From a virus (lineage: Duplodnaviria; Heunggongvirae; Uroviricota; Caudoviricetes), in the IMG/VR virus record IMGVR_UViG_3300007747_000079: a DNA stretch of 4,613 nucleotides. One strand, written 5' to 3'. The notes under the pieces were generated by a model. The model had not been told where the DNA came from. It worked only from the letters and a program-made list of their open reading frames with translations, and did no database searches. Position numbers and translations under genes: made by a program. Shown piece after piece: positions 3,838 to 4,613 of the stretch; the stretch's first letter is position 1; every line of letters starts with the position of its first letter.

Positions 3838-3912
3838 ATGGCTGGAACACAGCATACCCAAACTCACCCTGACTATTCCAGTATCTCCACATTGGAGGCG
3901 TGTCATGGCTGA
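3838..3912 (+). CDS. small upstream ORF (24 aa), possible leader peptide translationally coupled to the HNH gene
   Basis: ATG 3838 is preceded by AGGAG (3825-3829) at 8-nt spacing. It encodes MAGTQHTQTHPDYSSISTLEACHG and its TGA (3910-3912) overlaps ATG 3905 of the next gene. There is no homology evidence. Confidence 0.3.
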   Translation: MAGTQHTQTHPDYSSISTLEACHG

Positions 3913-4582
3913 ACTAACCCAAAAATACTTACGTGAAACCCTGCATTACGACCCTGAAACAGGCGTTTTTACATGGAGAGTTCCACCAGCCAGAAACGTT
4001 AAAAATGGTAGTGTTGCTGGGTGTCTTACCAGTCATGGTTATATTCAGATTGGGGTTAAAAACAGGCTTTATGCAGCGCACCGACTTGCATGGCTTTATG
4101 TTTATGGCAAATGGCCTACAAATTTAATTGATCACATCAACGGGGTACGCAGTGATAATCGTATTACTAACCTCCGCGAAGCAACGAGCGCAGAAAATCA
4201 ATACAACATATTAAAGGCAAAAAATAATACATCGGGAGTCAAGGGAGTTACTTGGAGTAAGCAGCATAAAAAATGGCGCGCCCAATGTCGTGTTAACGGA
4301 AAAAACCATCGACTAGGCCTATTTGCGGATATTTGTGAGGCCGAACAAGTAGTAAAACAATTTCGCGAGCAGCATCACGGTAAATTTGCTAATCACGGGG
4401 AAGGAAATGGGCAATCGCACAACCTGAATAAATATATCTGGCGTTTTATCGCCCTGAGCACGGCACAACCGCGCGTGATTACCATTGAGGCCACCAGCGA
4501 ACAGGAAGCACGCCAGCAATCTCCGGCTGGCTGCGTGATGGTATTCGCCGCCCGTATTCGTCAGGGGGTGTGCCATGCCTGA
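3905..4582 (+). CDS. HNH endonuclease (HNH_3-type) with AP2 DNA-binding domain and an atypical C-terminal extension
   Basis: The 225-aa ORF has GGAGG 6 nt upstream. The HNH_3 signature is GYIQIGVKNRLYAAHRLAWLYVYGKWPTNLIDHINGVRSDNRITNLREATSAENQ. The AP2-like block is SGVKGVTWSKQHKKWRAQCRVNGKNHRLGLFADICEAEQVVKQFREQHHGKFA. About 55 further residues follow before the stop. Confidence 0.88.
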   Translation: MAELTQKYLRETLHYDPETGVFTWRVPPARNVKNGSVAGCLTSHGYIQIGVKNRLYAAHRLAWLYVYGKWPTNLIDHINGVRSDNRITNLREATSAENQYNILKAKNNTSGVKGVTWSKQHKKWRAQCRVNGKNHRLGLFADICEAEQVVKQFREQHHGKFANHGEGNGQSHNLNKYIWRFIALSTAQPRVITIEATSEQEARQQSPAGCVMVFAARIRQGVCHA

Positions 4583-4613
4583 TATGTCAAATTACCAGTA
4601 CCTGATTAATCCG
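4575..4613 (+). CDS. hypothetical protein, 5' end only (continues beyond window)
   Basis: ATG 4575-4577 overlaps the HNH stop in ATGCCTGA. A G-rich Shine-Dalgarno-like tract (GGGGG) lies 8 nt upstream. The frame is open to the window end (MPDMSNYQYLINP…). Only 13 codons are visible. Confidence 0.3.
   Translation, partial: MPDMSNYQYLINP

Follow-up and report, generated by a model that had tools for sequence, protein, structure and literature searches.

A nuclease cassette in an icd-like leader gene

The DNA considered here is a stretch of 4,613 nucleotides (nt) from a Caudoviricetes virus record (IMG/VR IMGVR_UViG_3300007747_000079), referred to throughout as the window, and the segment of particular interest is its distal part (3838-4613), where a gene for an HNH nuclease with an AP2-type domain occupies the 5' end of an icd-like gene. 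The window is a helper-embedded phage-inducible chromosomal island (PICI), a satellite that lies within, and in the same orientation as, the gpA-type terL gene of a lambdoid prophage. Since the layout of the island is that of the helper-embedded PICIs defined by Tommasini, Mageeney and Williams (2023; PMC10111431), positions 3838-4613 represent the beginning of the satellite early/replication operon. This operon, made up of the icd-like gene, a gene of phrog_15327, DUF4222, a primase and SSB, is conserved in satellites.

The native translation start of the icd-like gene is still in place (3825-3870, plus strand). An AGGAG motif (3825-3829) precedes the ATG at 3838, and this ribosome-binding site (RBS) together with the first 33 nt of the gene, encoding the 11 residues MAGTQHTQTHP, is identical to the corresponding region of intact icd-like genes in two related loci, L012 and L003 (related loci are given L numbers here), where the protein continues with KFIY. 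Identity with both genes ends at the left junction, 3870/3871. The initial annotation had described a 24-amino acid (aa) open reading frame (ORF) with a strong RBS, and such a stub does exist (3838-3912, plus strand); it consists of 11 native icd codons followed by 13 codons from the cassette, and its native beginning had been overlooked. Also as described, the stub shares 8 nt with the HNH ORF, its TGA (3910-3912) overlapping the nuclease start at ATG 3905 (ATGGCTGA).

The cassette itself spans ~543 nt (3871-4413, plus strand), is missing from HNH-less alleles, and brings a GGAGG (3894-3898) and an ATG (3905) of its own but ends without a stop. Its junctions, derived by direct comparison with HNH-less alleles, are sharp; on the right, identity with these alleles (L002) returns at 4414 (TCGCACAACCTG, encoding SHNL...). 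Because the cassette lacks a stop codon, the nuclease reads in frame into Icd-like residues 13-67. The resulting ORF of 225 codons (3905-4582, plus strand) encodes the HNH-AP2 part (aa 1-165), a flexible linker and the Icd-like residues (aa 171-225), the last being identical to residues 13-67 of the 67-aa Icd-like protein encoded in L024 (strain KSC64), an HNH-less sibling that occupies the same prophage terL site, has an identical Bro-N protein and opens its operon with this 67-aa gene. The conserved part of the invaded gene (4433-4564, plus strand; aa 177-220) matches the whole of the NCBIfam NF033153 profile (1-48) with a score of 66.8 bits (cut-off 25), as well as PHROG 6196 and 1743, and is modeled with a predicted local distance difference test (pLDDT) score of 87-91. 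Initially, this Icd-like domain at the C-terminal end of the "HNH" ORF (~50 residues) went unrecognized. The third gene starts, as had been noted, with an ATG (4575) that overlaps the stop codon of the fused ORF (TGA, 4580-4582; ATGCCTGA); only 4575-4613 of it (plus strand) lies in the window, and the complete gene encodes 106 aa of PHROG 15327. The overlap is native to icd, being present in HNH-less L002 and L024 as well. Splicing elements were also considered. An intein was rejected because the icd codons ahead of the HNH gene are read in another frame, which the TGA at 3910-3912 closes, and because the HNH gene has its own Shine-Dalgarno (SD) sequence and ATG; an intron is ruled out by the same frame, stop codon and independent start signals.

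The protein is predicted to be an active nuclease. Its HNH_3 core (4070-4201, plus strand; aa 56-99) scores 63.5 bits with Pfam PF13392 (cut-off 24.8) and contains the DHING motif pointed out earlier, and the fused ORF matches PHROG 99 "HNH endonuclease" at 9e-78. Residues D76-H77, N89 and N101 (the last just past the core) align with D74-H75, N87 and N96 of I-HmuI and are invariant or nearly so across 27 homologues; they make up the beta-beta-alpha-metal set of an Asp-His general base, a structural Asn and a metal-binding Asn. Some family members have lost the catalytic His; here the catalytic residues are intact. The AP2-type DNA-binding domain (4232-4399, plus strand; aa 110-165), three strands and a helix, was part of the initial assignment, which stands fully for HNH_3 and needs qualification for AP2: the Pfam AP2 score is under the cut-off (19.5 vs 33.3 bits), many homologues carry a precomputed PF00847 match, and the fold is supported by structure comparison, in which the three-stranded sheet packed on a helix is superposable on solved AP2 domains. 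Overall, I-HmuI was the closest fold, followed by AP2 domains. The AlphaFold model of the fused protein (mean pLDDT 85.7) shows three domains and a disordered linker (aa 167-173, pLDDT <50).

Free-standing proteins of ~165 aa ending in "...FANHG" can be aligned with residues 1-165 over the entire length. A word-indexed search returned 5,276 homologues, and the family comprises 116,321 cluster representatives, of which just one cluster covers both the HNH and Icd parts. Homologues occur in 3,633 phage records, often in several copies per genome, and phage relatives of 50-60% identity exist. HNH plus AP2 is presented as a recognized homing endonuclease gene (HEG) family in the passage of PMC10448857 that cites its ref. 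45.

Upstream of the icd-like gene lies a region that may control the operon. A divergent gene (3534-3707, minus strand) encodes a 57-aa ribbon-helix-helix protein (WP_000106746.1), also found in HNH-less satellites, which is a putative repressor of the early promoter; this assignment is based on weak matches under the cut-offs to Pfam Arc (E 0.0057) and NCBIfam YlcI_YnfO_N (E 0.001) and on a match to PHROG 228 "Arc-like repressor" (3e-7). A consensus scan found a sigma-70-like promoter pattern, TTGACA-17 nt-TACTAT (3701-3729, plus strand; 10/12 matches), and the -35 hexamer of this predicted promoter overlaps the start codon of the repressor gene. Putative operators are formed by an inverted repeat with 12-nt, 100% complementary arms (ATGGTAATTACC at 3706-3717 and GGTAATTACCAT at 3738-3749), with a degenerate third copy at 3751-3761 (repeat region 3706-3761); they enclose the -10 hexamer together with the probable start point of transcription. 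A hairpin (CGCCCCG...CGGGGCG, 3776-3806) separates the promoter from the icd start; it is kept in HNH-less satellites and marks the left boundary of the module common to satellites. With no T-run on the plus strand and TTGTTTTTTG following it on the minus strand, the hairpin looks like a terminator of leftward transcription. An Rfam PK-repBA match on it was sub-threshold and is attributed to chance. No C4/IsrK/CI-type immunity RNA was found in an Rfam search of the whole window, which gave only sub-threshold chance matches. Co-expression under Arc-like control, as suggested initially, is plausible in the sense that the genes could be transcribed together from the repressor-flanked promoter and be coupled in translation; a dedicated coupling of the nuclease to a partner is not, since the overlap belongs to icd.

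Distribution and divergence of the cassette

We surveyed 5,426 complete E. coli genomes. The flanks of the operon were present in 1,742, 1,640 and 1,750 of them in three flank searches, and the HNH insert in three, at 100% identity; more than 99% of the E. coli genomes with the early operon thus lack it. For strain 20, the flank search reported a second matching place in the chromosome. The helper-embedded backbone without HNH is common, O157:H7 genomes included, and terL-embedded sibling islands with the identical Bro-N protein are also devoid of the insert. Presence and absence at one locus are accordingly sporadic among close relatives (3 carriers vs ~1,740 genomes with the flanks). The three carrier islands occupy three sites (prophage terL, beside cspD and beside gcd) and differ in their integrases and Bro-zone genes; the primase and the late module each come in two types among them. 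In a larger assembly collection, the exact 225-aa protein was indexed in 187 blocks, and the sites at which it is seen are prophage terL, cspD/macB, nfeF and gcd; a near-identical variant at the ilv/yifB site has only 3788-4577 in common with the window. Integrases, primases and capsid modules vary among the sites, the satellites occur with helpers of different packaging types, and the identical protein was found in at least five different satellite backgrounds.

Near-identical copies in divergent genomes are accompanied by flanking tracts that resemble co-conversion, the identity beginning between 3788 and 3815. The terL-embedded island of E. coli strain 20 and OY754349 are identical over 3802-4662, with unrelated repressor regions upstream of 3802, and identity with the window starts at 3802 in L004 and at 3788 in L023. 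Both of these mosaic boundaries (3788 and 3802) fall inside the leader hairpin. A further comparison is provided by two near-isogenic islands at the nfeF site, L014 with HNH and L002 without, which are identical up to 3814 and again from 4414, a 69-nt segment of L002 being replaced by ~600 nt in L014. The replacing stretch includes 56 nt of donor-type left flank, so that HNH arrived along with this flank, which is consistent with co-conversion.

Two diverged versions of the fusion were found in other enterobacterial assemblies. In L006 the HNH part is 89% identical, with the same 24-codon stub (MAKPQCTQTRPEYSSISALEVCHG) and the same 8-nt overlap; in L007 it is 80% identical and has a different upstream context. 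In both, the nuclease is again fused without a stop codon to an Icd-like domain, but the Icd sequences are far more divergent. Among these copies, the HNH-AP2 part has a synonymous divergence (dS) of 0.32-0.77 and a ratio of nonsynonymous to synonymous divergence (dN/dS) of 0.13-0.19, and the HNH coding sequence is under purifying selection as judged from these ratios. The fused Icd part has a dS that is either saturated or no lower than 1.1. The much lower dS of the HNH part indicates that the nuclease gene is much younger than the icd alleles to which it is attached, the signature of an element moving between pre-existing alleles. A frameshifted variant also exists (P0002). The gene downstream of the fusion varies between backgrounds, and since the three genes do not co-occur in other genomes, the proposal of a nuclease with a dedicated partner fails.

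In Klebsiella, islands resembling capsid-forming PICIs (cf-PICIs) carry free-standing relatives of ~59% identity elsewhere in the island. The Klebsiella relative P0022 (174 aa; L008-L011, the HNH gene lying for example at 6001-6525 of L008) follows an AntA gene in the Bro zone and ends in ...KDHA* with a stop/start overlap (ATGCGTAA), resembling the end of icd (...CHA* and its overlap with the next gene). This resemblance hints that P0022 may descend from an HNH-Icd fusion that lost its Icd domain.

Origin and possible roles of the nuclease gene

Homing was one of several roles raised in the initial annotation, and it is the one we favor: a free-standing gene of the HNH-AP2 homing endonuclease type probably inserted itself into the icd-like leader gene at its 5' end and spreads among satellites. 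By the same token, there is a reasonable chance, better than even, that the nuclease gene is a selfish passenger and not a dedicated cargo system. The tempting reading of a "nuclease operon" as cargo needs correction in any case, the locus being a conserved early/replication operon most carriers of which do without HNH. Spread could occur when satellites with and without HNH (or replicating copies of them) meet in one cell and derepression of the early promoter allows the enzyme to be produced. Ribosomes would begin at the old icd site, terminate at 3912 and restart at 3905, possibly with additional use of the SD sequence of the cassette. The nuclease would then bind through its AP2 domain and nick or cut the HNH-less allele near the conserved hairpin and icd sequences, and recombinational repair from the HNH-containing copy would import the cassette along with some flank. 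The in-frame fusion and the retained coupling would maintain expression of the Icd domain and the replication genes, so that the cost to the satellite may be small.

Several known systems are similar in part. Free-standing phage HNH-AP2 HEGs have the same domain order, a size of ~165 aa, the conserved D-H...N...N residues, I-HmuI as best structural match, a sporadic distribution and a seat at a genetic-exchange boundary (PMC10448857); here, unlike in those phages, the gene is in a satellite, lacks a stop codon and is fused to the conserved domain of the invaded gene. T4-family mobE and the HNH insertion of phage ShiLan, which lies inside a methylase coding sequence (CDS) without intron or intein (PMC11855218), are likewise HNH genes within a CDS that have no splicing elements, and their layout seems to contain the harm done to the host gene. 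The ShiLan HNH, however, is out of frame inside an in-frame insert, whereas here the upstream part has become a terminated stub and HNH is in frame with the downstream part. Nuclease genes at boundaries of exchange are already known (PMC10448857). Two details are unusual here: the host is a satellite, and the nuclease, having no stop codon, continues in frame into the conserved domain of the gene it invaded. In leaders of the P1 immI type, icd is translated ahead of, and coupled to, the downstream genes. The satellite operon resembles immI in that it is putatively under repressor control and opens with a small Icd-like ORF whose stop codon overlaps the start of the gene that follows, but differs in that Rfam detected no C4/IsrK-type RNA in the whole window.

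A number of points weigh against homing. We infer the mobility of the cassette from its distribution alone. The frequency of HNH is low, about 0.2% of operon-carrying E. coli genomes. The exact empty site, in which codon 11 of the stub is joined to SHNLNK, was found neither in complete E. coli genomes (joined-flank BLAST) nor in JGI metagenome contigs (gapped exact pattern), and only alleles with alternative leader segments turned up. The segment from the hairpin to the Icd domain is hypervariable in general, with additional Icd repeats or short leaders in other alleles. Ordinary recombination could therefore exchange HNH as one module among several, and the "insertion" is defined relative to several different alleles. 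Finally, purifying selection and the repeated occurrence in satellites, including the free-standing copies in the Klebsiella Bro zone, also fit a function useful to the satellite.

Such a function is the basis of an alternative that we regard as possible but doubtful, namely that the nuclease has been domesticated as an effector of interference or defense and the fusion is kept because on derepression it cuts, for example, DNA of the helper, of a competing phage or of a rival satellite. An early, repressor-flanked predicted promoter driving the gene, its dN/dS of 0.13-0.19 and the recurrence of relatives at several positions in enterobacterial satellites would be expected of a useful gene; since phage relatives are 50-60% identical, related target sites could occur in phages, and HEG-derived domains have been co-opted in phage-satellite conflicts (PMC10448857). 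An active selfish HEG, however, is expected to be under purifying selection as well, and the gene occurs in just 3 of ~1,740 operon-carrying E. coli genomes, has no conserved partner gene and, to judge from helpers of different packaging types, is not helper-specific. Nor does it resemble the anti-phage defense system contemplated initially, as PADLOC gave only a weak generic "HEase" match (8.6e-5) and none for the neighboring genes. Somewhat less probable is that the HNH-Icd allele is simply a variant of a hypervariable leader, shuffled passively by general homologous recombination, with a protein that may work chiefly by binding DNA as a regulator of the "Bro network" type and not by cleaving it. 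Mosaicism is strong among the satellites, the region has several alternative alleles (the 67-aa Icd, two or three tandem Icd repeats), and PMC10111431, which mentions one HNH_3-AP2 protein in a terminase-embedded helper-embedded PICI, places it in a domain-swapping "Bro network" and does not describe an icd insertion or fusion. Intact catalytic residues in a family where some members have lost the His argue against passivity, as does the relative youth of the HNH part compared with the Icd domains in L006 and L007, and the identical copies in at least five backgrounds, despite their rarity, suggest drive or selection and not drift. It is conceivable, though again unlikely, that homing and usefulness are combined and that the fusion is a gene drive and perhaps a weapon: once derepressed, it would attack HNH-less satellites, whether co-resident or incoming, by cutting their icd region, or would cut related sequences in phages, converting or disabling them, and the stop-less fusion would be an evolved way, involving neither intron nor intein, of keeping the leader and the replication genes expressed.

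Two further explanations can largely be set aside. Some HK97-like systems need HNH proteins for cos cleavage, and as the island has late and packaging genes, the nuclease might be thought to aid the terminase in hijacking packaging, as had been proposed for the locus. This is extremely improbable: the gene is in the early operon and not in the late module, capsid-forming relatives already have a separate HNH beside terS/terL (WP_001145897.1), the helper terminase is a lambda-type gpA, in fold the protein is nearest to the homing enzyme I-HmuI with an added AP2 domain, and more than 99% of related islands are without the gene, which in effect implies that satellite packaging does not depend on it. 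Hardly more credible is a decaying pseudogene, even though PGAP annotates the gene in three genomes as an "HNH endonuclease, incomplete, missing C-terminus" followed by a separate Icd-like CDS, and the frameshifted P0002 shows that broken copies occur. The 225 codons are uninterrupted, residues 1-165 match full-length free-standing homologues, the dN/dS is low and the AlphaFold model confident, and a separate Icd CDS would require a CTG start at 4424, there being no in-frame ATG.

If the favored reading of a homing-type invader is correct, the cassette would offer a simple experimental handle on inter-satellite recombination and an example of an HEG that spares its host gene through translational fusion. 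A homing-type endonuclease would then circulate not only in phages but also in PICI and cf-PICI satellites, where it sits at the recombination boundary between the immunity and replication modules.

The satellite island and additional observations

The setting of the cassette is best seen in E. coli strain 20 (NZ_CP064847.1), which is 100% identical to the window over 1250-4613, and in contigs L016 and L021, which are >99.9% identical across the whole window apart from a 66-nt deletion in terL. A lambda-type large terminase is represented near the beginning of the window by its N-terminal ATPase part (225-1154; Pfam GpA_ATPase 1e-66), which ends abruptly; in strain 20, the remainder of terL picks up ~10.7 kb downstream with the island in between, and in being split around an island the locus agrees with the definition of a helper-embedded PICI (PMC10111431, with 14 integration sites). 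That paper has 'A:Terminase_1:245/246' sites, and the terminase gene here matches Pfam GpA_ATPase. Island genes in the window are an integrase (1316-2554), a small helix-turn-helix (HTH) gene (2567-2770) and a Bro-N anti-repressor-like gene (2829-3410). Further along the rightward operon of strain 20 come a hypothetical gene, DUF4222, a D5-type primase and SSB; beyond the operon lie genes for a ClpP-protease/capsid fusion and for DUF1441. The four zones thus recognized (int/alpA, Bro, replication and late), and the location within a co-oriented prophage late gene, terL, are those of helper-embedded and Gram-negative PICIs and cf-PICIs (PMC10111431).

The terL halves lie at 225-1160 of the window and at 8760-9752 and 20507-21628 of L001. 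The attL end (...TTCTGGATGTAGGGT) and the attR end (...TCCTGGATGGAGGGT) place the crossover at approximately 1146-1158 of the window, and excision of the satellite is the sole way to restore terL. The deletion mentioned above is located at 1039/1040, is in frame and distinguishes the window from the L021, L016 and L001 copies of the same prophage gene; the 22 codons removed (VLASEAAYIQCPSCSGRIMPEQ) include a CxxC pair. Directly 3' of the alpA-like gene, a strong hairpin followed by a T-run (2786-2811; CCCCGCACGCAATGCGGGG) forms an intrinsic terminator that divides the integration module from the Bro-N gene. A sub-threshold Rfam "Trp_leader" match merely reflects this terminator.

Immunity types may differ between islands. 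The HNH-containing island at the cspD site (L004) encodes a different, 63-aa ribbon-helix-helix repressor (8712-8903, minus strand), which has only the C-terminal RGIEPKG in common with the repressor of the window, suggesting that a different immunity type may precede an identical HNH-icd module. The stretch from the leader hairpin to the last Icd domain is a hot spot of alternative modules among satellites, and in L003 (6040-6815) and L012 (5062-5430) the Icd-like proteins contain two or three Icd-like domains in tandem; one example of 122 aa starts with MAGTQHTQTHPKFIYTFLAV... and contains ...NFIWRFIALS....

Automated annotation of the locus is misleading in two ways that the present analysis brings to light. 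RefSeq calls HNH a truncated pseudogene and adds a separate 52-aa Icd CDS begun at a CTG (4424). In the window (3367-3912, plus strand) and in L013-L022 (6463/6499-7008), the gene callers used for metagenomes give a spurious ORF of 169-181 aa, which overlies the repressor gene in antisense orientation, shares the reading frame of the stub and masks both.

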